Under the pieces are notes generated by a model. It made no database searches. It was given only the letters and a program-made list of their open reading frames with translations, and was not told where the DNA came from. Shown here piece after piece: positions 19,958 to 34,712 of a stretch of DNA of 64,000 nt; positions within the stretch are counted from its first letter, which is position 1, and every line of letters starts with the position of its first letter. The translations under genes were made by a program, and so were the position numbers. Source of the DNA: Candidatus Moraniibacteriota bacterium (GTDB taxonomy: Bacteria > Patescibacteriota > Minisyncoccia > Moranbacterales > GCA-2747515). The DNA is taken from positions 7,234-71,233 of the forward strand of contig JAXGYI010000003.1 in assembly GCA_040772365.1 (NCBI GenBank), read 5' to 3'.

Positions 19958-22312
19958 ATGACACAGAAACACACACCTTACCTTGCCGACATTATCATCC
20001 CGCATCACGATCGGGATGACTTGTTGGAGAAATGTCTAGCAACAATCCCGCGAGATCAATTTCATGTGATCGTACAAAGTGGTGGGAGCTTTGCTGAAAA
20101 TTGCAACAAGGGTGCCAAGAAAGCAAAAACAGACAATCTTATTTTTCTTAACGATGATACGGAGATTGATGCAACACTACTTGTGGCACTGTGTGAAAAA
20201 AAATCAGATGTTGTAGGGCTTTCTCAGATCATTCCTAATATTCCCGGGGTTATCTATGGCTTGCAGTGTACTATTGGTCCTGCAGACACTGTGCAGACTT
20301 TGTTTGCTTTTGACAAGGGCGATGTCTTTTTGCCGTCGGGGTACTGTTTTTTGATGCGTCGTCACATGTGGGAGAAGTTAGGGGGGTTTTTTACGGGCTA
20401 TCGGAATGGACATGAGGATGTAGATCTCTTCTTACGGGCCATTGAGCGCGGTGCGACATTTGCGTTTGTAGATGCGCCTGGTCGACATTACCACAGTCAA
20501 TCGTCGGGACGCAGTGACCACATTGATCGCAATGCAGCGCTATTTTATCAACGGTGGGACAAGGCACGGTGCGAAAAGGTGTTACGCAAGCACGCACACG
20601 TGATCTATCGCGATCAACGTGCTCAGTGGAAGAGCGATGCGGCGAGCGCGGATCGGAGCGACTTTTATCACCTTGTGCGCACACACTATTTCACCGTGTC
20701 CACGCGGGAAGTGTCGTGTGCGTCCGTGGAGGATGCTGTGGCGGCGTGGGATCGCGATACCTATCTCACATGTACTGGTGTGTCGCTGGCGGCGGTGCAT
20801 CGCGCACTGGGGCGCGAGCGTCTGAGTGCGCATGCGTGTTTTGCGGTTGTGGAGCGCGCTAATCGTATTGTGAAAATCAATCCCGACGCTGTGCCGGACG
20901 TATTGGCGCACGAAGAACATTTTGCACTATTCATACCGCACAGAGAGTTGACAATGGTGTCGTTTGTATCGCATTCCGCCAATCGGTATGGTGCGGAGAA
21001 ATCACTCAAAGACATGATCCGCCACATGGTGCCGCACGGTATTGTGCCGCATGTCATTTTGCCGGCGCACGGGTTTTTTGTGGAGGATTGTACAGATCTC
21101 CCGATCAGTTATGATGTGACGCCGCTGCCGTGGAGCACGCGGGCGTTTACCGGTGACGAGCAATTCTATCGTAGTACGATTTTTCACGCGGCGATTGCGG
21201 TGGCGTCGCGCATTGCCAACGTCAATACCGATCTGGTGGTCACGAGCACATCAGTGATTGATGAAGGTGCGCTTGCCGCGCGGCTTTTGGGGATTCCACA
21301 TATTTGGCGCGTGTCGGAGTTTGGGTGCGTGGAGCATGGAATAGTATTTTTGGACGATAGTCGTGACCGCTTGCGATTCATCACGGATATGGCAGATACA
21401 GTGCTGTTCAGTTCGCAGGCGCTGCAGGCATACTATGAGGAGCATGTTGGACCGTCTGGAAAATATGTAGTGGGTGGCGAGATGGTAGAGGTGATGCCGC
21501 CGTCGGCGGACGCGCAACGCTTTTTCATGGATGAGAATGCACTGAAAATTGTGGTTGTAGGCAATTTGGCAGAGGGTAAGGGGCAGCATGATGCCGTTTC
21601 TGCTGTGGCTGCGGCAATCCGGCGTGGATCGCTGGTGGAGCTGGCACTTGTCGGCGGGGAAGAGGATCGAGATTATGCGACAAAGGTACGTACGTTGGTG
21701 GAGAAGGAAGGTGTTAGTGCGCAGGTGCATTTTGTTGGCTATGTAAAAACGGTGCGTGATGTGTATGATCAGGCGGATGTGGTACTGACATGCTCAGTGT
21801 TTGAAGGTTTTGGGCGCACGCCAGTGGAAGCGATGTTGTGCGGTAAGGCGGTGATCGGTGCGCGATCTGGCGCGACGCCGGAGCTGGTGCGGGATGGGGA
21901 GAATGGGTTGCTGTATGCACCGGGCGATGTGGATGCACTTGCAGCACATATAGTGCATTGTGCTGCGCATCCCGATCTTGTACAGCGCTACGGGGAAAAC
22001 GGTAGAGCGTTTGTGACACGCATGTTTACAAAGGAAAACTACTGTGCGACGCTGCAACGTGTCTTTGCCACGGCGCAGGCATCGCGTCGTGGGACGATTA
22101 CGGCAGTGCTTGCCGCGCATGTGGCGGCGATGCATGCGAAGGGAGCTGTGATGGATCGCGTGCATGAGCGAGATGCAGTGATTGCGCAGATGCACCAGTC
22201 GCCATTTTGGAAGGCAAAAGAACTGTATGAGAAAGTACGTTTTGCACTCACGCAACCACAGCGGTTTGCGGCAAAATATGTGTCTGCGGGATGGGCACGA
22301 TGGAAAAAATAA
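19958..22312 (+). CDS. Bifunctional glycosyltransferase: N-terminal GT2-like domain plus C-terminal GT4 (group 1) domain
   Basis: C-terminal …VFEGFGRTPVEAMLCGKAVIGARSGATPELVRDGENGLL… (the E-x7-E GT4 motif). N-terminal Rossmann-like GT-A region. C-terminal SPFWKAKELYEK motif. Confidence 0.8.
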   Translation: MTQKHTPYLADIIIPHHDRDDLLEKCLATIPRDQFHVIVQSGGSFAENCNKGAKKAKTDNLIFLNDDTEIDATLLVALCEKKSDVVGLSQIIPNIPGVIYGLQCTIGPADTVQTLFAFDKGDVFLPSGYCFLMRRHMWEKLGGFFTGYRNGHEDVDLFLRAIERGATFAFVDAPGRHYHSQSSGRSDHIDRNAALFYQRWDKARCEKVLRKHAHVIYRDQRAQWKSDAASADRSDFYHLVRTHYFTVSTREVSCASVEDAVAAWDRDTYLTCTGVSLAAVHRALGRERLSAHACFAVVERANRIVKINPDAVPDVLAHEEHFALFIPHRELTMVSFVSHSANRYGAEKSLKDMIRHMVPHGIVPHVILPAHGFFVEDCTDLPISYDVTPLPWSTRAFTGDEQFYRSTIFHAAIAVASRIANVNTDLVVTSTSVIDEGALAARLLGIPHIWRVSEFGCVEHGIVFLDDSRDRLRFITDMADTVLFSSQALQAYYEEHVGPSGKYVVGGEMVEVMPPSADAQRFFMDENALKIVVVGNLAEGKGQHDAVSAVAAAIRRGSLVELALVGGEEDRDYATKVRTLVEKEGVSAQVHFVGYVKTVRDVYDQADVVLTCSVFEGFGRTPVEAMLCGKAVIGARSGATPELVRDGENGLLYAPGDVDALAAHIVHCAAHPDLVQRYGENGRAFVTRMFTKENYCATLQRVFATAQASRRGTITAVLAAHVAAMHAKGAVMDRVHERDAVIAQMHQSPFWKAKELYEKVRFALTQPQRFAAKYVSAGWARWKK

Positions 22313-22324
22313 ATTATCAACACT

Positions 22325-24505
22325 ATGGTGAGTAGGCGACAGGTAAAAAAATATCTCTACTTGGTGCGATCCTTTTTTGCAACAATACGCAGCGAGGGTA
22401 TTGTGCGTACAGTGCGACGACTGTATTATTTCGTGCGTTATGGTAAGGGTGTGGCGTCACGAGAGGAGTACGATCATTACCGCATGCGACATAAAATTCC
22501 CGCACACATGAAGCACGTACGTGAGGTGGTACGACCCACGACGTCGCGTGATGTACCTATGTCATATGATGGCCCACCGATCGATATCATCATCCCAGTG
22601 TACAATGGCTATGAGTATCTTGCACCGCTATTTGACAGTATTGTGGCGCATACTGACATGCCATATCGTGTGATTGTGATTGATGATGCATCACCGGATG
22701 AACAGGTGATGTCGTTTGTAGCACAATTACCAGAGCGCTATCCGTCTGCAGAGATCATTGTGCAACGTAATGCGGAAAATGTGGGGTTTGTTCGTTCGGT
22801 AAATGCCGGCATGGCACAGGCACGGTCGCACTGTGTAGTGCTCAACACGGATACGGAAGTGCCGCCCAGATGGCTATCGCGTTTGCTGCGTCCAATTATA
22901 GAAGATGCTACCATCGCCAGCGCTACGCCAATGACCAATGCCGGTGAAATTTTTAGTTTTCCAGAGATCATCACCAATAATGCGATGCTATGTAATGCTA
23001 CGGTTGCGCAGGTGGACCACTTTTTTCAGAAACTTGTACCACAGGAGTGGATTACGGTGCCGACAGGAATGGGCTTTTGCATGGCGATGAACAAGGCAGC
23101 ATATGACCGTATCGGCACATTTGATGCAGAGGCATTTGGGCGCGGATATGCGGAGGAAAATGATTGGTGCCAGCGTGCCATTGCTGCAGGATTTACCAAT
23201 GTTGTGGTGCCCAATCTTTTTATCTATCACAAGCATGGTGGATCGTTTCTATCACAAGAGAAGCAAGAGCTCTTGGCGCGTAATTTACGCACACTCAATA
23301 AGCGTTATCCCGGATATGATCGGATGATACAGAAGTTTATCACCGCGGATCCATTGCGAGGCATACGTATGGTGTTGCTATTGTGGATTATCACTAATGT
23401 GTGTGCCAAAAAAACAGTGCTGTATATTGACCACGAGTTGGGCGGTGGTGCAAATGCTTACACGAAAGAGCGTGTGGCGGAGATTGTGAAAGCGGGCAAT
23501 GTGGCGATTGTGGTGAGCTATAATGTGACACAAAATGTCTATCATCTAACATATTATAGTGAGGCGCAGCATGGCACTGTAGAGGCGGCAACGCTGGAGG
23601 AGTTTACATGGGTTTTGGCGCAGGTGCCAATGCATGAGATTGTGGTGAGCCAGGTGGTGTCACATCCATCACCGTGTACAGTGTTGACATGGATTACAGC
23701 AATGATTGCACGCACGAAGGCACGAAGTACGTTTTTGGTGCACGACTTTTATGCGGTGTGTCCGAGTTTCAATTTATTGAATGATCAGGGTGTGTACTGC
23801 GGTGTACCACAGGATGTAGAGGTGTGCATGCGATGCATGGCACGCAATAAGGGAGATTTTCGCATGTACAGTAGCGAGAAGAATGTGCGGGCATGGCGCA
23901 GGCAGTGGCACGCGTTTTTACAATCCATGGACACCATCGTGTGTTTTTCACAGTCGTCAAAGGACATTATGGTGCGCGCATATCCTGATATTCTGAGTCG
24001 CATAACGATTATACCGCATGAGGTGCATTACATTACGGAGCAGCCAAAGATTGTACCAAAAACTGCCGAACAGAAAGTAGTCGTTGGCGTTTTGGGAGGC
24101 ATTAACTATCAAAAGGGTTCGCATATTGTGCGTGATATGGTGCGGGAGATTGAGCAACGATGCTTGCCGGTGCAGATTGTCGTTATCGGACACCTGGCGC
24201 TTAAGATGCGCAGTAAGGCATTGACGGTACACGGTGTTTTTAAGCAAGGTGAGATTGTATCGCTTACCGAGCACTATAAAATTGATGTATTTATCATCCC
24301 ATCCATTTGGCCGGAGACATTTTCTTACACGGCAGAAGAGGTAATGCAGATGCAGATGCCACTTATAGTATTTGATCTTGGTGCACCAGCAGAGCGTGTA
24401 CGCAACTATGTGCACGGCAGTGTTGTTGGGGAACGTACGGCTACGGCGCTTCTTGATCACGTGTGTACTGTACAGCAGCGTCGCAGTGCGAATCAAAAAA
24501 TATAA
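22325..24505 (+). CDS. Bifunctional glycosyltransferase (GT2 domain plus C-terminal GT-B-like domain)
   Basis: IDIIIPVYNGYEYLAPLFDSI…VIDDASPD GT2 signature. The C-terminal half has a Rossmann-like GT-B pattern. Confidence 0.7.
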   Translation: MVSRRQVKKYLYLVRSFFATIRSEGIVRTVRRLYYFVRYGKGVASREEYDHYRMRHKIPAHMKHVREVVRPTTSRDVPMSYDGPPIDIIIPVYNGYEYLAPLFDSIVAHTDMPYRVIVIDDASPDEQVMSFVAQLPERYPSAEIIVQRNAENVGFVRSVNAGMAQARSHCVVLNTDTEVPPRWLSRLLRPIIEDATIASATPMTNAGEIFSFPEIITNNAMLCNATVAQVDHFFQKLVPQEWITVPTGMGFCMAMNKAAYDRIGTFDAEAFGRGYAEENDWCQRAIAAGFTNVVVPNLFIYHKHGGSFLSQEKQELLARNLRTLNKRYPGYDRMIQKFITADPLRGIRMVLLLWIITNVCAKKTVLYIDHELGGGANAYTKERVAEIVKAGNVAIVVSYNVTQNVYHLTYYSEAQHGTVEAATLEEFTWVLAQVPMHEIVVSQVVSHPSPCTVLTWITAMIARTKARSTFLVHDFYAVCPSFNLLNDQGVYCGVPQDVEVCMRCMARNKGDFRMYSSEKNVRAWRRQWHAFLQSMDTIVCFSQSSKDIMVRAYPDILSRITIIPHEVHYITEQPKIVPKTAEQKVVVGVLGGINYQKGSHIVRDMVREIEQRCLPVQIVVIGHLALKMRSKALTVHGVFKQGEIVSLTEHYKIDVFIIPSIWPETFSYTAEEVMQMQMPLIVFDLGAPAERVRNYVHGSVVGERTATALLDHVCTVQQRRSANQKI

Positions 24506-24614
24506 TGTATTGCGAAAATTTTTTTCTATGATATTATGATAATGTAGATAGATAGTACGAAATGGTATACGGTGGTTAATCTTTGCGCCCATCATCTGTT
24601 TTTGTGCATCTGCT

Positions 24615-26048
24615 TTGTTCTCCGTGCGCGACGCACAGGCGCAATTTCAAGAGGTACGATTGACATCCGGCTTTTTTGGGGAATATAGCCCATCGTTGTC
24701 TGGGGATAAAATTGTATGGCTTGACAATCGTCATTCAAGCGAAACAGATACAGAGGTTTATTTGTATGATTTTACAACAAAAAAAGAGAGACGCATTACA
24801 AATGTTGCTAGTAGAAAGGATGATGTCTCTATTTCTGGTAATCGGATTGTATGGACGGATTGGCGTAATGGAAATCAGGATATTTACATGTACGATTTAG
24901 CTACAAATGTTGAAAAACGTATCACTACCAATACCAAATCGCAAGTGTATCCAAAAATTGACGGAGATAAGATTGTATGGCAGGACTATCGAGATGGATC
25001 GATAGGGTCCGCTGTGTATATGTATGACCTTGCCACTAACACGGAGAAGCGACTTGTTACTTCCGAGGGGAAATATCAGGAACGCCCCGCAATATCTGGC
25101 AACTACGTTGTATGGTCTGATACAACCAGCAATCCCAATGGGCTACTACGGCTGTATAATATCTTCACTAGTGTCACAACGTATCCCTTGATTAGCGACA
25201 AGGGAGATCGTATGGACTTTGTTGCAATTTCTGGTAATAAGGTGGCGTACAGATATAACGAAAATGGAACAGGGCGGTACAATGTCTACGTCTATGACAT
25301 TGATACAAAAACAGAAGTAAAGGTAACAAAAAATACAACAACGGACCTACGAGATCTGGCAATTTCTGGTAATAAGGTGGCATGGACAGACAATCGCAAT
25401 GGCAATCTCGATATTTATCTTTATGATCTTGCAACTGCCAAAGAAACGCGCATCACAACCAATGCAGAAGAGCAGTCTGAGCCAACAATTTCTGGAAATC
25501 GGCTGGCGTGGAAGGACTTTCGACATGGAGGTGCAGACATCTTTCTTGTAGACTTTTCTCCTACAGCTGTGGAACCGCCAGTAGCTACTCCCAAGCCCGT
25601 TCACCGCTTCTACTCCGAAGAATTTCAAGCACACTTCTACACCATCTCTGAAGTAGAGAAAAACCATATCATTGCCACTTATCCACCCCGCACCTGGAAC
25701 TATGAAGGTGTTGCCTATAATGCGATTAGTGATAGTCTTCCGGGTATGGCGCCGATCCACCGTTTCTATTCTCTGGCTAGTAGAAAGCATTTCTATACCA
25801 TCTCTGAAGAGGAAAAGAACCGTCTCATTGGCGGAGCATATCCGGCAGCACAATTTACTTATGAGGGTGTTGCCTGGTACGCACACCAAAAGAACGCTGC
25901 TGCAACACGTCCGCTGCATCGCTTCTATTCCGAGAATAGTGCTGTGCACTTCTATACGGCATCGGAAAGTGAAAAAAACCACATCATTGCCACCTATCCA
26001 CCCCATATTTGGAACTATGAAGGAGTGGCGTGGCATGCGTTACAATAA
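24615..26048 (+). CDS. Secreted beta-propeller-repeat protein (TolB-like ISGxKIVW…DIYMYDL blades, about 8 copies) with a C-terminal module of three ~45-aa RFYS…HFYT…YEGVAWYA repeats
   Basis: Tandem blades of ~42 aa. In frame upstream of the TTG at 24615 lies a signal-peptide-like segment (…FAPIICFCASALFSVRDAQA) without a canonical ATG, so the true start is uncertain. C-terminal triple repeat at ~25595-26040. Confidence 0.7.
   Translation: MFSVRDAQAQFQEVRLTSGFFGEYSPSLSGDKIVWLDNRHSSETDTEVYLYDFTTKKERRITNVASRKDDVSISGNRIVWTDWRNGNQDIYMYDLATNVEKRITTNTKSQVYPKIDGDKIVWQDYRDGSIGSAVYMYDLATNTEKRLVTSEGKYQERPAISGNYVVWSDTTSNPNGLLRLYNIFTSVTTYPLISDKGDRMDFVAISGNKVAYRYNENGTGRYNVYVYDIDTKTEVKVTKNTTTDLRDLAISGNKVAWTDNRNGNLDIYLYDLATAKETRITTNAEEQSEPTISGNRLAWKDFRHGGADIFLVDFSPTAVEPPVATPKPVHRFYSEEFQAHFYTISEVEKNHIIATYPPRTWNYEGVAYNAISDSLPGMAPIHRFYSLASRKHFYTISEEEKNRLIGGAYPAAQFTYEGVAWYAHQKNAAATRPLHRFYSENSAVHFYTASESEKNHIIATYPPHIWNYEGVAWHALQ
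25605..25813 (+). repeat. Direct repeat copy A (~209 bp, apparently identical to 27092-27300)
   Basis: Nucleotide stretch cgcttctactccgaagaatttcaagcacacttctacacc…tctgaagagga recurs 1487 bp downstream. Confidence 0.8.
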
Positions 26049-26132
26049 GGAAAGAATAAACAGCTCATCATGAGCTGTTTATGCTCTAGAGAACAATACG
26101 ATTATAATCTTAATGTCTTTAATGACAAAAAA

Positions 26133-27535
26133 ATGAAGAAACTATGCCTCTTTATTCTCCCGACACTCTTTTTCATCGGACAGTCAACATGGGCGCAGGA
26201 AATGCGTATCACTCTTAATGATGGAGTGGATCATTATAATCCTGCAATTTCTGGTGATAAAATTGTTTGGAATGATATCGTAGCGGGAATGGAGATATTT
26301 ATCTCTACGACCTGACAACCGGAGAGGAAACGCGTATCACAACGGATGTGGAATCTCAGAGAGATCCCAGTATCTCTGGCGACAAAATTATTTGGAAAGA
26401 TCTTCGAGATGGCTTCTTCGGCAGTATTTATATGTATGATCTTACTACGAAAACAGAAACGCGTATTACGGGAGGTCTCGCAGTTCCATTTTATCCAAAA
26501 ATATCTGGCAATATCATTGTATGGGAGGATCGGAGAGAGGCGGGTAATCCGGACATTTATATGTACGATCTGACTACAGGCACAGAAAAAAAGGTTAGTA
26601 CGTATGCCAGTAAAAAGTCTAAACCAGCTATTTCTGGCAATAACATTGTGTGGGAGGATGAGCGCAATGGCAATTCGAACATCTATATGTATGACCTTGC
26701 TACAAATACAGAAAAAAAGATTAGCACACATACTAGTAGACAGATCGTTCCAGCTGTTTCTGGCAATATCATTGTGTGGGAGGATTATCGTGGTGGCAAC
26801 TGGGACCTCTACATGTATGACCTTTCTACAAACACAGAAAAAAAAGTTACTACGGATACATATGAAAAGAAAAATCCCTCCATCTCCGGTAATATCATCA
26901 CATGGGATGATAATCGTCATGGGAGTCGTGATATTTATATGTACGATCTAGTACGTTAAAAAGAGAAACGACTTACTCATGGGGCGGTATCTTGGAATTC
27001 TAGATTGTCCGGCAATCGAATTGTCTGGAGCGATAGTCGCACGGGAACATATCAGGTCTATCTTGTGTACACAGACAATCAACCTATCTATCGCTTCTAC
27101 TCCGAAGAATTTCAAGCACACTTCTACACCATCTCTGAAGTAGAGAAAAACCATATCATTGCCACTTATCCACCCCGCACCTGGAACTATGAAGGTGTTG
27201 CCTATAATGCGATTAGTGATAGTCTTCCGGGTATGGCGCCGATCCACCGTTTCTATTCTCTGGCTAGTAGAAAGCATTTCTATACCATCTCTGAAGAGGA
27301 GAAAAACGAACTCATCAACAATAAATACCCTGAAGCAAAATTCACCTATGAAGGTATTGCATGGTATGCACACAAAACACCGCAATCTTTCACCACACCT
27401 CTGTATAGATTCTACTCAAAGGCCCATGCCGTTCACTTCTATACCGTTAGTCAAGCAGAGAAGGAATACATTCAAAACACCTATCCGCAAGATATCTGGA
27501 ACTATGAAGGTATTGCGTGGTATGGGATGAGGTAG
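26133..27535 (+). pseudogene. Disrupted paralogue of the upstream beta-propeller/triple-repeat surface protein. It has a signal peptide, propeller blades and the C-terminal repeat module, but is broken by a 1-bp deletion (~26277) and an in-frame TAA (26957-26959).
   Basis: ORFs 26070-26315, 26348-26959 and 27005-27535 read as one protein across a -1 frameshift (gat-atc-gta-gcg-gg where the blade consensus predicts gat-Tat-cgt-agc-ggg). The stop falls where the blade consensus has Thr/Asn. Confidence 0.6.
27092..27300 (+). repeat. Direct repeat copy B (~209 bp identical to 25605-25813)
   Basis: See copy A. Encodes identical aa …RFYSEEFQAHFYTISEVEKNHIIATYPPRTWNYEGVAYNAISDSLPGMAPIHRFYSLASRKHFYTISEEE. 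Confidence 0.8.
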
Positions 27536-27664
27536 GCTCTCATAGCACATAGTCTAGAAATCCGCTATACTTCAAGTCAGCCCAGAGAAAGAAGGGTTGC
27601 TTGATGTCGTATTTATAGGTATGCTATAGGAGATAATATATTCAAAAATAGATACACAGAAAAA

Positions 27665-29743
27665 ATGAAAAACATATTTTATACGATCATATTTCTGAGC
27701 GCTATTTTTTTGTGTAGTGCAACAGCAGAGGACGTGTGTGCCGCTGATTTACATGTGCCGCAAGGTGGCTATAGTACCATTGGTGCAGCTATTAAAGCTG
27801 CGCAGGCAGGCGATCGTGTTATAGTGGCACCGGGTATCTATCGTGAAAATATTAGTATCCGTAAAAATATTGCAGTCATTTCTACGGATGGTGCAGCGCA
27901 CACGGTTATTGATGGTGGCGGACGTGATACGGTGGTACTTTTTGCTGACACTAGATTTGATGGTACGCATTCCGCACGTCTGTCGGGCTTTACAATTCGT
28001 GGCGGTCGTAGTGGTGAGGGACGTGGTGGCGGCGTTACAATGTACAATACGGATGGCATCGTAGAGCAGTGCAATATTATAAGCAATGTATCAACTATGG
28101 ATGCCGGTGCAATCTTGATGAATGATCGTGTGAACGGTGTAGTACGCAACAATACGATTACCGGTAATACTGCTGTGCGCTTTGGAGGTGCGATTATGGT
28201 AGTTTTGAATTCCCATCCACTCATCTATGGCAATACAATTACAGATAACACAGTGAGTGGCAATGCACTGTCGAGTGGTGGTGCACTTTTTGTGGACAGC
28301 CATTCATCGCCACAAGTTGTTAACAACACCATGCGCGGAAATACTGCAGCATTTGCTGGGGGTGCAATCTCGCTGCGCGTGGGCGTGAATGCAGTGATTG
28401 ATGGCAATACGATTGACCGTAATAGTGCCGCATATGGTGGTGGGATTCACATTGAAAGTGAGGGTGGCGGCGCATTACTCCGCGATAACACTATCACAAA
28501 TAATAGTGCGCACGAGAGGGATATTTCTGTAGGCTCTGGTTATGGTGGCGGCATCTCCATCTATGATAGGTCTGTGCCAACCATTGAAAAAAATATCATT
28601 GAGTCGAATTATGCAGATCGTGGTGGTGCAGGAATTGTTATTGCTGAGCAGGCAGTAGCGACGATTGCGCATAATACAATTCGAGGAAATAGCTTGCCAC
28701 AACAGGATGGACGCGTGGGTGGTGGCATCCATGCAACACATGCGACCATGCAGGCTTATAATAACACTATCAGTGATAATACAGCATTCATCGGTGGTGG
28801 CGTGGCACTTTTAGCAGGCGTGACAGCAAGGGTAGAGCAAAACACTATTGTACGCAACACTGTGCCAACATCCACGGCAGTGAATGCGGCAAGTGGTGGT
28901 GGTATTTTTATCCAAAGCTCTGCAGCATCTGCAGTAGTGATCAATAACATCATTACGCAAAATCAAGATCACCAAATTTTTGAAGAGCATAAAAAGGGTG
29001 TACTACGCAATAATATTGTCAATGATGACAGTAAGGGGATGTATTTCAACTGGGACACCTATACACTACACACAGTAACCGACATGGACAGTAGCAGCGC
29101 TGTTAATGCAGATGGTACGGTGAGTGGCACGGAGGGTTTTACAGATAGCGATTTTCGTATTGGCGCAACATCTGTTGGTATTGATAGGGGCATGAGCTCT
29201 GACATGACGTATGATTATGATTATCGCTTGCGCAGTGGTGTGCCAGATATTGGTGCTTTTGAGTATGCGCCATCATACAGTGTAGTACATCCAGTATATC
29301 GTTTTTGGAGTGATACTTTTGGTCATCACTTCTATACACTTAATCAACAAGAGCGTAATCACATTATGGAAACGTACGCTGCGAAGCAGTGGCGGTATGA
29401 GGGCGTGGCATTTCGCGCATTTCCTCTAGCACAGTGCCAGGGAGATCGTGTGTATCGTTTTTGGAGTGACGTTTTTCGCGGACACTTTTATACCATTTCT
29501 ACACAGGAGCGTGACTATATCATGGCATCATATGCGGACAATGTGTGGCGTTATGAGGGTGAGGCGTATTGCGCACAGCGTACTTCTATCACTGGGACAA
29601 CGGCACTCTTTCGCTTTTGGAGTGCGGCGTATAGCGGACACTTCTATACCATTAGTACCGCAGAGCGTGATCAGGTTATTGCAGCATATGATGACAGTAT
29701 TTGGAACTATGAGGGTGTTGGATATCATGTGTATACGCGGTAG
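27665..29743 (+). CDS. Secreted right-handed parallel beta-helix (NosD/pectin-lyase-fold-like) protein with a C-terminal triple RFWS…HFYT…YEG repeat module
   Basis: Signal peptide MKNIFYTIIFLSAIFLCSATA. About ten repeats of the NNTI(T/S)GN(T/S)A…GGAI type (PbH1-like). C-terminal three ~45-aa repeats at ~29285-29740. Confidence 0.7.
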   Translation: MKNIFYTIIFLSAIFLCSATAEDVCAADLHVPQGGYSTIGAAIKAAQAGDRVIVAPGIYRENISIRKNIAVISTDGAAHTVIDGGGRDTVVLFADTRFDGTHSARLSGFTIRGGRSGEGRGGGVTMYNTDGIVEQCNIISNVSTMDAGAILMNDRVNGVVRNNTITGNTAVRFGGAIMVVLNSHPLIYGNTITDNTVSGNALSSGGALFVDSHSSPQVVNNTMRGNTAAFAGGAISLRVGVNAVIDGNTIDRNSAAYGGGIHIESEGGGALLRDNTITNNSAHERDISVGSGYGGGISIYDRSVPTIEKNIIESNYADRGGAGIVIAEQAVATIAHNTIRGNSLPQQDGRVGGGIHATHATMQAYNNTISDNTAFIGGGVALLAGVTARVEQNTIVRNTVPTSTAVNAASGGGIFIQSSAASAVVINNIITQNQDHQIFEEHKKGVLRNNIVNDDSKGMYFNWDTYTLHTVTDMDSSSAVNADGTVSGTEGFTDSDFRIGATSVGIDRGMSSDMTYDYDYRLRSGVPDIGAFEYAPSYSVVHPVYRFWSDTFGHHFYTLNQQERNHIMETYAAKQWRYEGVAFRAFPLAQCQGDRVYRFWSDVFRGHFYTISTQERDYIMASYADNVWRYEGEAYCAQRTSITGTTALFRFWSAAYSGHFYTISTAERDQVIAAYDDSIWNYEGVGYHVYTR

Positions 29744-30263: not shown

Positions 30264-32132
30264 CTATGGGATGTGCCATCCGATTCCCTCATAGCGCCAG
30301 ATGTGATCGGGATATGTCGCAATAACAGTATCGCGTTCAGGGGCACTCGCTGTATAGAAGTGTCCTTGTTTTGTGTCAGACCAAAAGCGGTAGACCGGCG
30401 TGGATTGCGCGAGAGGGTAGGGGTAAGCATAGTAGGCAATACCCTCATAGTTCCATATGTAGGGATCATACTGCGCAATAACGGCGTCGCGCTCTTCTTG
30501 TGAAGCTGTATAGAAATGATGTTGCTGGGCAGTACTCCAAAAGCGGTAGATCGGCGTAGTGTTTGCTTGTTGCTGCGAGAAAGCAAGAAAGGCAATTCCC
30601 TCATAGCGCCAGATGTGGTCTGGGTAGGTTGCAATGACAGCATCACGCTCAGTAATGCTTGCTGTGTAGAAATGCCCTTGTGTCGCAGCAGACCAAAAGC
30701 GGTAAATGGGTGTTGTCGCGCATGACTCTGTTGGAATGGTACCGGACTGTGCAGCGCGCAAGGCAGTGTAGAGATTTAGTCGTCTGTTGCATGCTACAGT
30801 ATTTTCTAGAGAAGCCGGATGATCACTACTTGCAAGGATGATGGCGCGTACTGCTGTGGGAGAGAGAAAGGGCTTGTGTCCGAAAATCATTGCGGCAGCA
30901 CCTGAAACAAATGCGGCGGCATAGGAGGTACCGTCGCCGGTGTAGTAGGTGTTATTTTCTATAGTGCCTACAATACTTTCACCTGGTGCAGCGATGTCTA
31001 CAGATGTACCATAATTAGAAAATGATGCCAAAGTGTCATTTTTTGTAGATGCTCCGACGCAGATGATGTTAGAGAGATCGTAATTGCATGGGTACTGCGG
31101 AGTGACATCAACATTGTCGCCAACTCTGTCATTGCCACCATTGCCTGCAGCAGTAACGACTACGCCATCAAATGTAGAAAGGGCATCATATTCTGATCTT
31201 GCATAGGATGGTCCGCCAAAACTGGCATTAAGCACCTTAATGCCGTGTGTTTTGGCAAATGCAATTGCTTGCAATTCTGATGCTAGGGTGAGGTCAAATC
31301 GTAACGCCATAATTTTGCCAGTATTATAGCGGCTCATACCGGCAAGTCCGGTAGCATTGTTCGTAATGGCGGCAAAAATACTAGCTACCATTGATCCGTG
31401 ACCATATAAGTCAGGGTGTGTGGATGTATCATAGGGATCATGGTCATCATCGGCGAAATCCCAGCCATGCTTTGGGCATGTTGCATCCATTGCGGGATTA
31501 CAGTGAGGGGCTGTCCAGAGATTTCCGTGCAACTCAGGATTGTCATGGAGGATCCCGCTATCAATAAATGCTACAGTTGTAGGTGTTGCAGAAGGGTGTT
31601 CAATATCCCACGCCTCTGTGCTATCAATATCACTATTCGTGGACTGTTGGTGGTACCACTGGTAACCCGCAATGAAATACGGATCATTTGGACTAAATGC
31701 TGGCGTCTTGATATAGTTGGGCTCGGCATAGGCTACATCGGCACTTGCAGAGAGTCGCGCAATGAGCGTCTCGGTGTTTTCCTCTTCCGCTGCAATAATG
31801 ACAATATTGAGATCAGTAAAAGAATGTCGGATTTGCAGGGCATCAGTTTTTGCGGCAGCCTTAAGAGAGGAGAGAATCTTATCACTTGCATGCGCAGTGA
31901 TGTCATGTGGAGATGCAGATATGCCAATTTCTTTGCGTGTAGCCGCGTGAAACTTCTTGATGGCAGTATCATGCATGCGTACAATAACCTCACCATCTCG
32001 ATACGGTGCTGGATGGGTAGCGTGATTGAATGGGCGCTGAGGGAGTTCTTCAGCAGCTACTGTGTGGGTATGTGGAATACATAATGCAAAAACAATAGCG
32101 GCGGTAGAAGCGCAGGAAAGTATTTGTGTCAT
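30264..32132 (-). CDS. Secreted subtilisin-like serine protease (peptidase S8) with a C-terminal triple RFWS…HFYT…YEGIA repeat module
   Basis: Catalytic triad contexts AFIDSGI (Asp), HGSMVAS (His), GTSYAAAFVSGAAAM (Ser). Signal peptide MTQILSCASTAAIVFALCIP. Start chosen at the internal Met (the ORF track extends to 32297, overlapping the next gene). Three C-terminal repeats encoded ~30264-30700. Confidence 0.8.
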   Translation of the reverse strand: MTQILSCASTAAIVFALCIPHTHTVAAEELPQRPFNHATHPAPYRDGEVIVRMHDTAIKKFHAATRKEIGISASPHDITAHASDKILSSLKAAAKTDALQIRHSFTDLNIVIIAAEEENTETLIARLSASADVAYAEPNYIKTPAFSPNDPYFIAGYQWYHQQSTNSDIDSTEAWDIEHPSATPTTVAFIDSGILHDNPELHGNLWTAPHCNPAMDATCPKHGWDFADDDHDPYDTSTHPDLYGHGSMVASIFAAITNNATGLAGMSRYNTGKIMALRFDLTLASELQAIAFAKTHGIKVLNASFGGPSYARSEYDALSTFDGVVVTAAGNGGNDRVGDNVDVTPQYPCNYDLSNIICVGASTKNDTLASFSNYGTSVDIAAPGESIVGTIENNTYYTGDGTSYAAAFVSGAAAMIFGHKPFLSPTAVRAIILASSDHPASLENTVACNRRLNLYTALRAAQSGTIPTESCATTPIYRFWSAATQGHFYTASITERDAVIATYPDHIWRYEGIAFLAFSQQQANTTPIYRFWSTAQQHHFYTASQEERDAVIAQYDPYIWNYEGIAYYAYPYPLAQSTPVYRFWSDTKQGHFYTASAPERDTVIATYPDHIWRYEGIGWHIP

Positions 32133-32229
32133 TGCGCGCTGAAAATATGTTTTGCGGGAAAGAGTAGTGTAGATATACACTTTGTTGAAGTGGTTCATGT
32201 GCCAAGGCATAGCAGGAGGTGATGTTGTG

Positions 32230-32784
32230 TTACAGACTTTCAATAAATTCTTGTTGTAGACGTGTAATGCACGTTTTTTTGATTCCACCATCATCAATTT
32301 CGTCGCAGATGGTTATATCTTTTTGTGCGATAGCACGGTCTTTGAGACAGTAGTCCTTTGGTAGTCCATTGTGTGCATCGCAATGTGTGATGGAATCACT
32401 AGAAGAAAGACCGCAGGCATTTCTGCAATAACGAAGCTCCTTTGCGTCATGTTTGTACGGCTCACATTCACGTGCACAATCTGGTGGGGTGATGTTGATA
32501 TAGGCTGTGGATGGTGATGTAGTAGCGGGAGGGACGGTATCTTGTGGCTCTTGTTCTACGATAGATTGCGGATCTAGATCGTTGTGCGTAATAGGCACAT
32601 CAGGGGTTTCTACTGGCACGTCATGTTGTGATGGTGGTGCTGTGTCTGTAGGTGGTGTGACGAAAACGTCACGGTCACGGGCGCTGAAAACAGTGATTAC
32701 AAAATAGAGCACGATAATGACAGCTATGGTGAGTGCCGTGTAGAGGATGTGTATAGGGCGTAGATTTTTTCGTAGCATAGTCAT
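32230..32784 (-). CDS. Membrane-anchored protein with a Pro/Thr-rich linker and a Cys-rich C-terminal domain (hypothetical)
   Basis: N-terminal TM anchor MTMLRKNLRPIHILYTALTIAVIIVLYFVITVF, then a PT-rich stretch, then about 10 Cys over 90 aa. Start trimmed to avoid overlap with the upstream gene. Confidence 0.4.
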   Translation of the reverse strand: MTMLRKNLRPIHILYTALTIAVIIVLYFVITVFSARDRDVFVTPPTDTAPPSQHDVPVETPDVPITHNDLDPQSIVEQEPQDTVPPATTSPSTAYINITPPDCARECEPYKHDAKELRYCRNACGLSSSDSITHCDAHNGLPKDYCLKDRAIAQKDITICDEIDDGGIKKTCITRLQQEFIESL

Positions 32785-32801: not shown

Positions 32802-34712
32802 TTAGTATGCAGCATCGAGTGCGATATCCTTGTAGTAGTAACGCATAATGCGTGCGTAACTCCATCCATGATCGCGAGCAAGAGCAAGAGATCCGTGTGC
32901 AATAAGGCCTACCATGTGATTACCCTCAGTCTCTAGTGTAGATGTGGATTTTGTGGCGTGTTTGCCATAGGGATCTTTGACGGATTGGCACCATGGATAT
33001 AGTCTTGATCCCCAGCGCTCCTCAAAGCTGCGCGTACGACCATCACTCCAAGAGCTATATGGCGTGAGTGCTGTTTCGCCACGTGATGTCATAATGACGC
33101 CACGGGTTGCCTCTGCTGCTTTGCGGATAGTGGAATATTTCTGTTCCCAGTCATAGCCACGGTAGATTTGCGAACCGCTATCAGAGCGAATCTTGAATCC
33201 CAACGGAGCGTACTTTGTAGCATAATCTACGTACCACTTTCCGTAAGTGCGGAACATCGTTGTCATGACCTTGCTATGTTCAAATGGTCCGGTGCCGGTC
33301 ATCTCGCCCATACCCCATACGTAGTGCTCCATCGGCAAGGTATTGATTACCCAAATCTGCTTAACGCTATTTGTCGTACCGCCAATGATGTCACGTCCAC
33401 TGTAGTAGCGCACAGTGATGGATCCACGGTAATGATCGTAAGAGGACTGTGGGCGATGCACGTCAAAGATCATCGTGGCATTATCACCATCAGCAGCGTC
33501 AAAAGTGACTTTTTCATCAATAATGCGATCGCTGATGGACGAGTAAACTTTGAGACTTCCACCACCATCGTAAGTGACTTTTGTGCGCGTGCTACCACCG
33601 ATTTGCGCTATGATCGCGCCACTCTTGTCGCGGATGTTATAAGGCTTGTTAGCGTTAATTTCAAAAGGATTTTGCTGCATGGCAGAGCGGTCGTAGTGCC
33701 ACAGACCGACAGAAATGAGTGGACCAGTATTGCCGATGAGGGCGTAGTGTTTTTCTATGTCGTTGATGGTGTAGAAGTGATCGCGGGTGTTATAGAGACG
33801 ATGGACAGGTAGTGTGCCTACAGTTGGCGTGGGGTAGGCGTAGAATGCAACACCTTCATAGATATAGCCAGATGCTGTAGAACTCAATTGATCTTTTTCA
33901 TGTGTGCTGATGGTGTAAAAGTGATTACCAGTGATGGTGTGATTGAAACGATAAACAGGTTGCGCATTATTTTTTGGATCACGAAACGCATAAAATGCTG
34001 CGCCCTCATAGCGGTATGGTGTGCGGTTTTGCAAGAGAGTGCGCTTTTCATTTTCGTCAGCAGTATAGAAGTGATTCCCTGTAGTAGTATTGATGAAGCG
34101 ATAGATGGTATGATTGGCCATTTTAGTGGCGTTGTCCAGTGTCGCAGCCTCACCATCGTTAGCAGTATAGAAATGATCGCCATTAGCGTGGTTAATGAAG
34201 CGGTATACGGTGGTAGTGCCAGCCGCCTTATGTGGATAGGCATAGAAAGCAATGCCTTCTGATGCGTAGATAGTAGAGAGGTGTTGGGTAATGTAATCTT
34301 TTTCTTCTTGAGAAATGGTGTAAAAGTGGTCACCATTCGTATGATTGACGAAGCGGTAGATAGGCTGTGCATCGTGTAGATCGGAGATATAGCTATAGAA
34401 TGCAATACCTTCATAGGTGTAGATGTCTGCGTGCTGTGCAATAAGAGTATTTTTTTCGTTTTCGTCTGCAGTGTAGAAATGATCGCCGTTTGTAGTGTTG
34501 ACAAAGCGGTGGACGGGCACGGTGCCGTCTGCTTGTGCGGCAAATGCGTAAAAAGCTACTCCTTCCGCCTGATATTGCGTGCCGACGGTGTGATCAGGGT
34601 AGGCGTAGAATGCGATGCCCTCATCCGTATAGCTCGCATGTGTACTATGTTGTGGCAAGAGAATAGCACTGCCAAGGAGCGTCCATGCGATGATTAGTGC
34701 GATGTGTTTCAT
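32802..34712 (-). CDS. Secreted protein with an N-terminal array of about 6-8 RF[VI]N…GDHFYT…YEGIAFYAY repeats and a C-terminal SpoIID/LytB (amidase-enhancer) domain
   Basis: Signal peptide MKHIALIIAWTLLGSAILLP. Repeats over aa ~25-330. The C-terminal domain carries SpoIID-like …MEHYVWGMGEM… and …GNHMVGLIAHGSLALA… motifs. Confidence 0.7.
   Translation of the reverse strand: MKHIALIIAWTLLGSAILLPQHSTHASYTDEGIAFYAYPDHTVGTQYQAEGVAFYAFAAQADGTVPVHRFVNTTNGDHFYTADENEKNTLIAQHADIYTYEGIAFYSYISDLHDAQPIYRFVNHTNGDHFYTISQEEKDYITQHLSTIYASEGIAFYAYPHKAAGTTTVYRFINHANGDHFYTANDGEAATLDNATKMANHTIYRFINTTTGNHFYTADENEKRTLLQNRTPYRYEGAAFYAFRDPKNNAQPVYRFNHTITGNHFYTISTHEKDQLSSTASGYIYEGVAFYAYPTPTVGTLPVHRLYNTRDHFYTINDIEKHYALIGNTGPLISVGLWHYDRSAMQQNPFEINANKPYNIRDKSGAIIAQIGGSTRTKVTYDGGGSLKVYSSISDRIIDEKVTFDAADGDNATMIFDVHRPQSSYDHYRGSITVRYYSGRDIIGGTTNSVKQIWVINTLPMEHYVWGMGEMTGTGPFEHSKVMTTMFRTYGKWYVDYATKYAPLGFKIRSDSGSQIYRGYDWEQKYSTIRKAAEATRGVIMTSRGETALTPYSSWSDGRTRSFEERWGSRLYPWCQSVKDPYGKHATKSTSTLETEGNHMVGLIAHGSLALARDHGWSYARIMRYYYKDIALDAAY

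Follow-up and report, generated by a model that had tools for sequence, protein, structure and literature searches.

Probable gene conversion between two old tandem paralogs for propeller–DUF5648 surface proteins, both disrupted, in a Moranbacteria genome

How did two neighbouring genes for secreted propeller proteins come to share a run of 209 identical bases, and are they still genes? We addressed these questions in a 64,000-nucleotide stretch of DNA (assembly GCA_040772365.1, contig JAXGYI010000003.1; hereafter the window) from an uncultured Candidatus Moranbacteria (Moraniibacteriota) strain of the Candidate Phyla Radiation (CPR, Patescibacteria). Its DnaK has its best named matches, at 85–88%, in Moraniibacteriota. 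The two genes, g1 (24561–26048) and g2 (26133–27535), both on the forward strand, each code for a TIGR04275 beta-propeller followed by a C-terminal DUF5648 domain. A preliminary description of this DNA had read them as a recent tandem duplication whose second copy is decaying. Our comparisons point instead to a pair of old tandem paralogs that have undergone gene conversion, unequal recombination and exchange between lineages, and that are both broken in this strain. Taken as a whole, we consider this history probable.

The shared sequence, here called R, lies at 25605–25813 in g1 and at 27092–27300 in g2, on the forward strand in both cases. The preliminary description was correct that the two copies appear identical: they match at 209 of 209 positions, and the very next base on either side already differs. 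This pair is the only long exact repeat within the window. R encodes the first DUF5648 sub-repeat and most of the second. Identity between g1 and g2 drops to about 61% directly 3' of R, and on the 5' side the two cannot be aligned. The propellers of g1 and g2 are 43% identical in protein sequence; outside the patch, about 60% of the nucleotides of the two genes match.

We compared the window with about five related loci from two lineages, and seven distinct alleles were examined; the sequence features, the pattern among loci and the domain identities given below were observed directly. L001 (Logan assembly SRR11702768) belongs to the same species as the window strain, with flanks 99.7–99.9% identical to the window. 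L096 (JAXGLK010000004.1 of GCA_040769235.1) is from a metagenome-assembled genome (MAG) of a sister strain or the same population; its g2 propeller is 100% identical to that of the window and its g1 is identical from 24144 onward. L097 and L098 are from the Logan assemblies SRR27558881 and SRR27560948. L002 (DUUL01000050.1, a Candidatus Moraniibacteriota MAG) and L094 (ENA ERZ4240871, from another study than the window) represent one species, distinct from that of the window, and L095 represents a third lineage. Both L002 and L094 carry the g1–g2 tandem, with one-to-one orthologs of the two genes. The g1 protein of L094 (P0001, 497 amino acids) is intact and 95% identical to window g1.

The identity between the g1 and g2 copies of R within one genome is 100% in the window, 95.7% in L096, 93.3% in L002 and 80.9% in L094. 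In the 120 bp after R, g1 and g2 are 61.2% identical in the window, 73% in L002, 59% in L094 and 100% in L096, the last because g1 of L096 acquired the whole C-terminus of g2. Comparison across genomes gives the opposite picture, as window g2 and L094 g2 are only 78.9% identical in R and 92.6% identical in the 120 bp after it. Within R, paralogs of one genome are closer to each other than orthologs across genomes, and outside R this is reversed. If the 80.9% of L094 is used as the unconverted g1/g2 identity over R, the chance of 209 consecutive matches is about 0.81^209, or roughly 1e-19. We interpret the 209-bp identity as a non-allelic gene conversion tract between old paralogs.

In the simplest history, the first one and a half DUF5648 sub-repeats of g2 would have been replaced by their g1 counterparts in the window strain, with 25605–25813 as the putative donor and 27092–27300 as the putative acceptor. 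g1 is the likely donor because the R of the window matches that of L096 g1 exactly, while g2 of L096 keeps a distinct version, R' (seven single-nucleotide polymorphisms, SNPs, relative to R). Window R is also 99.5% identical to R of L001, and L094 keeps a g2-type version at 79–81%. In L002, g1 carries g2-type sequence 3' of R (NELINNKYPEAKF), so the conversion tract there differs or is longer.

Rearranged forms of the locus share this region. L001 has a single gene, in which the g1 propeller is followed by R and then by the C-terminus of g2, and is 1487 bp shorter; a lone marker of g2 type in its R would fit a crossover within that block. In L096, the C-terminus of g1 is replaced by a 557-bp copy of window 27092–27648, which is joined to the g2 start at a CAAAAA microhomology. 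L098 runs from g2 blade 7 through a mosaic R into the g1 C-terminus, a candidate reciprocal junction, and L095 joins a g1-type propeller to a DUF5648 module of the L094-g2 type, next to an immunoglobulin-like (Ig-like) protein with a similar module. These variants are consistent with unequal recombination at the DUF5648-coding homology, which may have produced the single hybrid gene, the swapped g1 C-terminus and possibly the reciprocal junction. As a separate observation in L095, the first ~59 codons of the gene for P0095, an Ig-like/DUF5648 protein, occur a second time about 1.4 kb downstream (892–1070 and 2281–2460), at the start of a 120-amino-acid open reading frame (ORF).

The two genes also appear to have taken part in exchange beyond the species. 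L002 (4555–7456) and L094 (4290–7065) align with window 24633–27536 at 92–98% nucleotide identity, and this homology begins at the g1 signal-peptide cleavage site and ends at the g2 stop codon. Between the window and L002 or L094, identity is 95–100% in block 24638–25763 and falls to 68–81% in block 25913–26213, which holds the last g1 DUF5648 sub-repeat, the intergenic spacer and the g2 signal peptide. It is 92–100% in block 26213–27112, apart from a single 75-bp step with 84% identity to L002 at the place of the L094 blade deletion, and 61–73% in block 27412–27535, the last ~120 bp of g2. The flanks show no real similarity (about 50%) and do not align. The species of L002 and L094 has unrelated flanking genes and a guanine-plus-cytosine (GC) content of 36%, versus 42–46% in the window; in L002, the flanks have a GC content of 36.3% and the cassette 41.5%. 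Its homolog of the neighbouring GT2 glycosyltransferase is 56% identical in protein to that of the window. Recent homologous replacement of propeller segments, in patches, between two distant Moranbacteria lineages would account for this pattern, and vertical descent would not. Transfer of the cassette by a mobile element was also considered and is not supported: its flanks in the window, L002 and L094 contain neither an integrase nor a transposase gene, and homologous recombination is simpler.

We then ask whether the genes are intact. The reconstruction of g2, together with hidden Markov model (HMM) matches and the ortholog alignment, gives a protein with seven blades, each about 42 residues long, between a Sec-type signal peptide and three DUF5648 sub-repeats. 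g2 can be read as a single protein of 467 amino acids only once one base is restored and an in-frame TAA is replaced. Frame 0 runs from the ATG at 26133 to ...KIVWND (GAT, 26274–26276), the propeller resumes only in the -1 frame, from 26276/26277, and the upstream frame terminates at a TGA at 26313–26315. The lesion, in blade 1, is a 1-bp deletion that turns GATGATC into GATATC (26274–26279, forward strand): both L002 and L094 carry an extra G, with AATGATGATCGT where the window has AATGAT-ATCGT (GATGATCGT in the ortholog versus GATATCGT in the window). The -1 frameshift that had been placed at about 26274–26284 is thus real as far as the sequence goes. The base lost is most likely G (Asp) and not the T (Tyr) proposed earlier, and either one would restore the frame. 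The same deletion is found in L096, L097 and L098, which come from at least two different sequencing runs, and L097 matches window 25784–26875 at 1092 of 1092 bases.

The second lesion of g2 is the TAA at 26957–26959 (forward strand), in blade 6, which the preliminary description had also reported. A three-way alignment places it opposite CAA (Gln) in L002, making it a C-to-T nonsense change; L094 has the TAA as well, and L096 is identical to the window there. g2 of L002 is intact at both sites, and this comparison bears out the earlier view of the second copy as decaying. Because the TAA is a substitution that also occurs in L094, from an unrelated study, g2 is truncated whatever the truth of the frameshift. 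It is more likely that the TAA common to the window and L094 was inherited or transferred than that it recurred, the chance of a second independent hit on this site being about 1 in 41 among the possible transition-to-stop changes.

Decay had been described for the second copy, and it extends further, as g1 is disabled as well. The earlier description missed a 63-bp deletion (junction at 24551–24560, between 24555 and 24556, forward strand), flanked by TACGA direct repeats, that took out the ribosome-binding region, the ATG and the first codons of g1, and with them the first part of the signal peptide. L001 has 63 additional bases at 24555/6 that encode ATG-MKQLRNGIRWLIF... (MKQLRNG...). The start is lost relative to both L001 and P0001, and L096 has the same deletion. 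The ORF as listed spans 24615–26048, and the first canonical start remaining is the TTG at 24615, within the signal peptide. From the ORF list and its translation, the TIGR04275 and PF18885 matches and the AlphaFold model of P0001, g1 is laid out as a remnant signal peptide (to about 24641, ...DAQA/QFQE), a seven-bladed TIGR04275 propeller, a linker and DUF5648. The frame left after the deletion still encodes most of the signal peptide. From these lesions we infer that neither g1 nor g2 is functional in the window strain.

Different lesions occur in other alleles. L001 has a TGG-to-TGA change at the equivalent of window 25385. In L002, a CAA-to-TAA change directly follows the signal peptide of g1 and another lies in g2 at the equivalent of window 27383, ahead of the last DUF5648 sub-repeat. 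L094 g2 has an in-frame 126-bp deletion of one blade in addition to the TAA. Only one of the seven distinct alleles examined, L094 g1, is intact. Since the lesions differ from allele to allele, the family appears to have been inactivated repeatedly, and its pieces would have continued to recombine. The ratio of nonsynonymous to synonymous substitution rates (dN/dS) in the propellers is 0.25–0.45 between lineages and not near 1 as for a pseudogene, which argues for past purifying selection and for inactivation that is recent relative to the divergence. The repeated loss would reflect either relaxed selection or selection for loss. The deletion in L094 (about 6278, corresponding to window 26623–26748) removes exactly one 126-bp blade; the two adjacent blades that border it are nearly identical, and the number of blades is thus variable.

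We therefore favour a history in which g1 and g2 are two old tandem paralogs, each a secreted propeller with a C-terminal DUF5648 domain, whose DUF5648-coding homology would have driven both the conversion and the unequal recombination, and whose propeller segments would have moved recently between two distant lineages by homologous recombination. g1 would have lost its start through deletion between the TACGA microrepeats, and g2 would have been hit by a 1-bp deletion and by a CAA-to-TAA change. Several points weigh against this history. The TAA is present in the window and L094 and absent from L002, which requires transfer of the nonsense allele, reversion or a recurrent hit. A dN/dS well under 1 means that both genes functioned through most of their history, and the "decay", with its presumed loss of function, would be recent. 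If the window, L096, L097 and L098 all stem from one long-read project, their common frameshift is not independent evidence. Consensus polishing could in principle have raised the identity of the two R copies to 209/209 from a value such as the 95.7% of L096. Finally, L096 is noisy and the de Bruijn graphs behind L001 and L098 can mis-thread repeats, which leaves the structural variants suggestive rather than proven.

The first alternative overlaps with this explanation and adds a cause to it. Inactivation or variation may itself have been selected, with the knock-outs and the shuffling being adaptive in escape from a phage or host recognition aimed at the propeller, or with the defective copies serving as donor cassettes for surface variation as in pilS/pilE and vlsE. 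At least six independent lesions in the seven distinct alleles, despite the earlier constraint, speak for it, as do the nonsense allele apparently common to two lineages, the shuffling of DUF5648 modules among different surface proteins and the position of the genes within an island of surface-protein and glycosyltransferase genes. Unlike the silent-cassette systems, however, the locus has no intact propeller copy that could be expressed in the window strain, and the other DUF5648 genes in the window, about 60–65% identical to R, have no conversion patches. Relaxed selection also explains the same data, and the sample is small. We regard selected inactivation as rather unlikely. The broader proposal that propeller–DUF5648 genes form a recombination-driven, horizontally exchanged variable surface system, with DUF5648 repeats as handles, defective copies as a reservoir and knock-outs under selection, seems to us somewhat more doubtful. 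The locus would gain greater importance only if the repeated inactivation were proved to be selected.

The second alternative is an artefact of assembly or polishing, in which the identity of R, the 1-bp deletion or both are consensus errors, while the true g2 would be intact or close to it. Compared with the window, region 1–12183 of L096 has many deletions of 1–2 bp, frequently within homopolymers, and these fragment its glycosyltransferase, beta-helix and subtilase genes; L096 looks like an unpolished long-read assembly. Such errors in a close relative favour an artefact, as do the seven SNPs that separate R from R' in L096, with none in the window, and a 1-bp loss in an A5 run in L098. Restoring the missing G at 26274–26279 also creates a GATC site, and methylated GATC is a known context of systematic basecalling errors in long-read (nanopore) data, which would apply here if nanopore reads underlie the assembly and the organism methylates GATC. 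Against this, the remaining ORFs of the window are intact and densely packed, and the tandem with a converted R also occurs in L002. L097 breaks off 30 nt (k-1) inside the end of R, as expected of a k=31 graph at a true repeat. The possibility of assembly or sequencing errors, raised in the preliminary description, is largely excluded by the presence of the frameshift in L096, L097 and L098, over at least two sequencing runs and with no mismatch in L097, and by that of the TAA, a substitution, in L094. We judge an artefact improbable.

A phase-variable contingency gene, switched on and off by slippage in poly-A tracts or at the frameshift itself, had been offered as another reading of g2. Three A7–A8 runs do lie inside this out-of-frame surface-protein gene, each encoding TEKK on the forward strand, which recalls the contingency loci of Haemophilus, Neisseria and Campylobacter. 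The two A7 tracts are at 26586–26592 and 26712–26718, as first described; the A8 tract is at 26838–26845, 11 nt further 3' than the 26827–26834 given earlier. Unlike in contingency loci, the frame change is in GATGATC, outside any homopolymer or short tandem repeat, and the tracts are short, in frame and invariant. Their lengths are equal in the window, in L002, in L097 and L094 where these cover them, and even in the homopolymer-error-prone L096; the strain comparison suggested earlier thus showed no variation among the assemblies that cover the tracts. A/T runs of seven or more are common in the window (68, or about 1.1 per kb), owing to AAA-rich lysine usage (451 AAA versus 357 AAG codons), and a nonsense codon is not reversible by slippage. 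Phase variation is very unlikely to account for g2. Recent tandem duplication followed by fast decay of the new copy, to which the adjacency of the genes, their common architecture and the 209-bp identity had pointed, is scarcely credible given propellers that are so diverged in protein and nucleotide sequence, one-to-one orthologs of both genes in a distant lineage, and a patch whose extent varies and that is only 79–81% identical between the L094 paralogs.

Other mechanisms that might explain a broken reading frame or an exact repeat were rejected. Stop-codon reassignment does not fit, as TAA is the main stop codon (20 of the 32 window ORFs), RF1 is encoded and the window has a single tRNA gene, for tRNA-Gln(CTG). 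Programmed -1 frameshifting does not fit either, as the site lacks a slippery heptamer and the target frame has a TGA just upstream of it. A diversity-generating retroelement was rejected because the repeat is exact and not adenine-mutated, and no reverse transcriptase was found among 26 scanned neighbouring and window ORFs.

The history we favour has parallels elsewhere. Ectopic gene conversion and unequal crossing-over between paralogs are known in bacteria from the tuf genes, from opa and pil of Neisseria and from outer-membrane protein paralogs of Helicobacter. The Moranbacteria locus resembles these in having sharply bounded identity within diverged paralogs, end-points that vary by strain, and deletion, hybrid and possibly duplication products. 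It differs in that the genome is that of a CPR bacterium, the handle is a DUF5648 module common to several unrelated surface proteins, and both partners are disabled here. As gene-family turnover in an understudied lineage the locus is clear-cut yet ordinary, and the CPR setting and the exchange between lineages make it moderately interesting. It offers a compact and well-resolved example of conversion, unequal crossing-over and inter-lineage mosaic exchange in surface proteins of Moranbacteria. These CPR bacteria are uncultured and probably depend on a host, and their surface proteins are thought important for attachment. In annotation, g1 and g2 of the window strain should be labelled pseudogenes. 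The 209-bp repeat is also a real hazard for assembly and binning, and the MAG GCA_040769235.1 of the same population is arranged differently at this point.

Domain searches identified the encoded proteins. The NCBIfam model TIGR04275 ("beta-propeller repeat protein") matches g1 with 257.5 bits and g2 with 265.6 bits, against a cut-off of 85. Blades are about 42 residues long (40–42 amino acids), with the motif ISG(D/N)xIVWxDxRxGNxDIYxYDL, and number seven both by sequence and in the model. In blade length, motif and HMM scores (3-fold over the cut-off), g1 and g2 resemble the TIGR04275 (beta_prop_Msarc) proteins of Methanosarcina, other archaea and CPR bacteria. The archaeal members usually have PKD or PGF-CTERM tails, whereas the tail of g1 and g2 is DUF5648. 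The AlphaFold model of P0001 (mean predicted local distance difference test score, pLDDT, 87.9) has a signal helix and 28 strands in seven blades, and residues 347–496 form a (beta-beta-alpha-beta)x3 C-terminal domain. Its closest solved folds are TolB-type propellers at 12–14% identity, a similarity at the level of the fold only; TolB equivalog models score far under their cut-offs, and g1 and g2 lack the TolB N-terminal domain.

DUF5648 (PF18885) matches both C-termini, with 117.8 bits for g1 (E = 5e-34) and 189.2 bits for g2, against a gathering score of 25. In both proteins it comprises three tandem sub-repeats of about 50 amino acids each (RFYS..HFYT..E...Y..EG). The literature describes DUF5648 as a domain of three-fold beta-alpha architecture that is implicated in the recognition of glycans and occurs in the receptor-binding domains of BSAP toxins, in GH70 enzymes and in an enterococcal endolysin (PMC11299179; bioRxiv 10.1101/2025.01.06.631476). 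The modules of g1 and g2 resemble these in their three sub-repeats, in the (beta3-alpha)x3 fold of the model and in their C-terminal position on secreted proteins. Unlike in those proteins, DUF5648 is here attached to a propeller and, in neighbouring genes, to beta-helix, subtilase and SpoIID-like proteins. g1 and g2 encode Sec-secreted proteins, and DUF5648 would probably anchor or target them at a cell surface. By analogy with the other proteins described in the literature, its role may include glycan or cell-wall binding.

Close relatives were rare in the collections searched. Only P0001, the g1 ortholog, exceeds 50% identity to reconstructed g2 in a collection of 5.8 billion proteins, and a scan of Joint Genome Institute (JGI) metagenomes gave no relative above 55%. 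Exact look-ups of a 203-amino-acid fragment of g2 and of the adjacent 726-amino-acid glycosyltransferase returned no match. An Rfam scan of the window found only the tRNA.

Some features of the sequence around g1 and g2 deserve mention. A consensus scan found a promoter-like site 5' of g1 (24510–24537, forward strand; TTGCGA-16-TATTAT with an upstream TG), which is retained in the window; the count of such sites is no higher than in shuffled sequence. Long antisense ORFs lie over the 3' half of g1 (25347–26036, reverse strand, 229 amino acids) and over the g2 propeller (26234–26920, reverse strand, 228 amino acids), most likely as by-products of the repetitive codon pattern rather than as genes. 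The spacer between g1 and g2 contains a hairpin with a 12-bp stem (26056–26082), found by a pattern scan. The hairpin is kept in L002 and L094 though the surrounding spacer is only about 70% identical, and it is a possible terminator of g1.

The genes belong to a surface island at 15698–37258. It begins with four large glycosyltransferase genes (15698–24505), followed by five secreted DUF5648 proteins. Besides g1 and g2, these are a beta-helix protein (27665–29743), a subtilase (30264–32297, reverse strand) and a SpoIID-like protein (32802–34712, reverse strand), each with DUF5648. A UDP-glucose dehydrogenase gene and another GT2 gene come after them.

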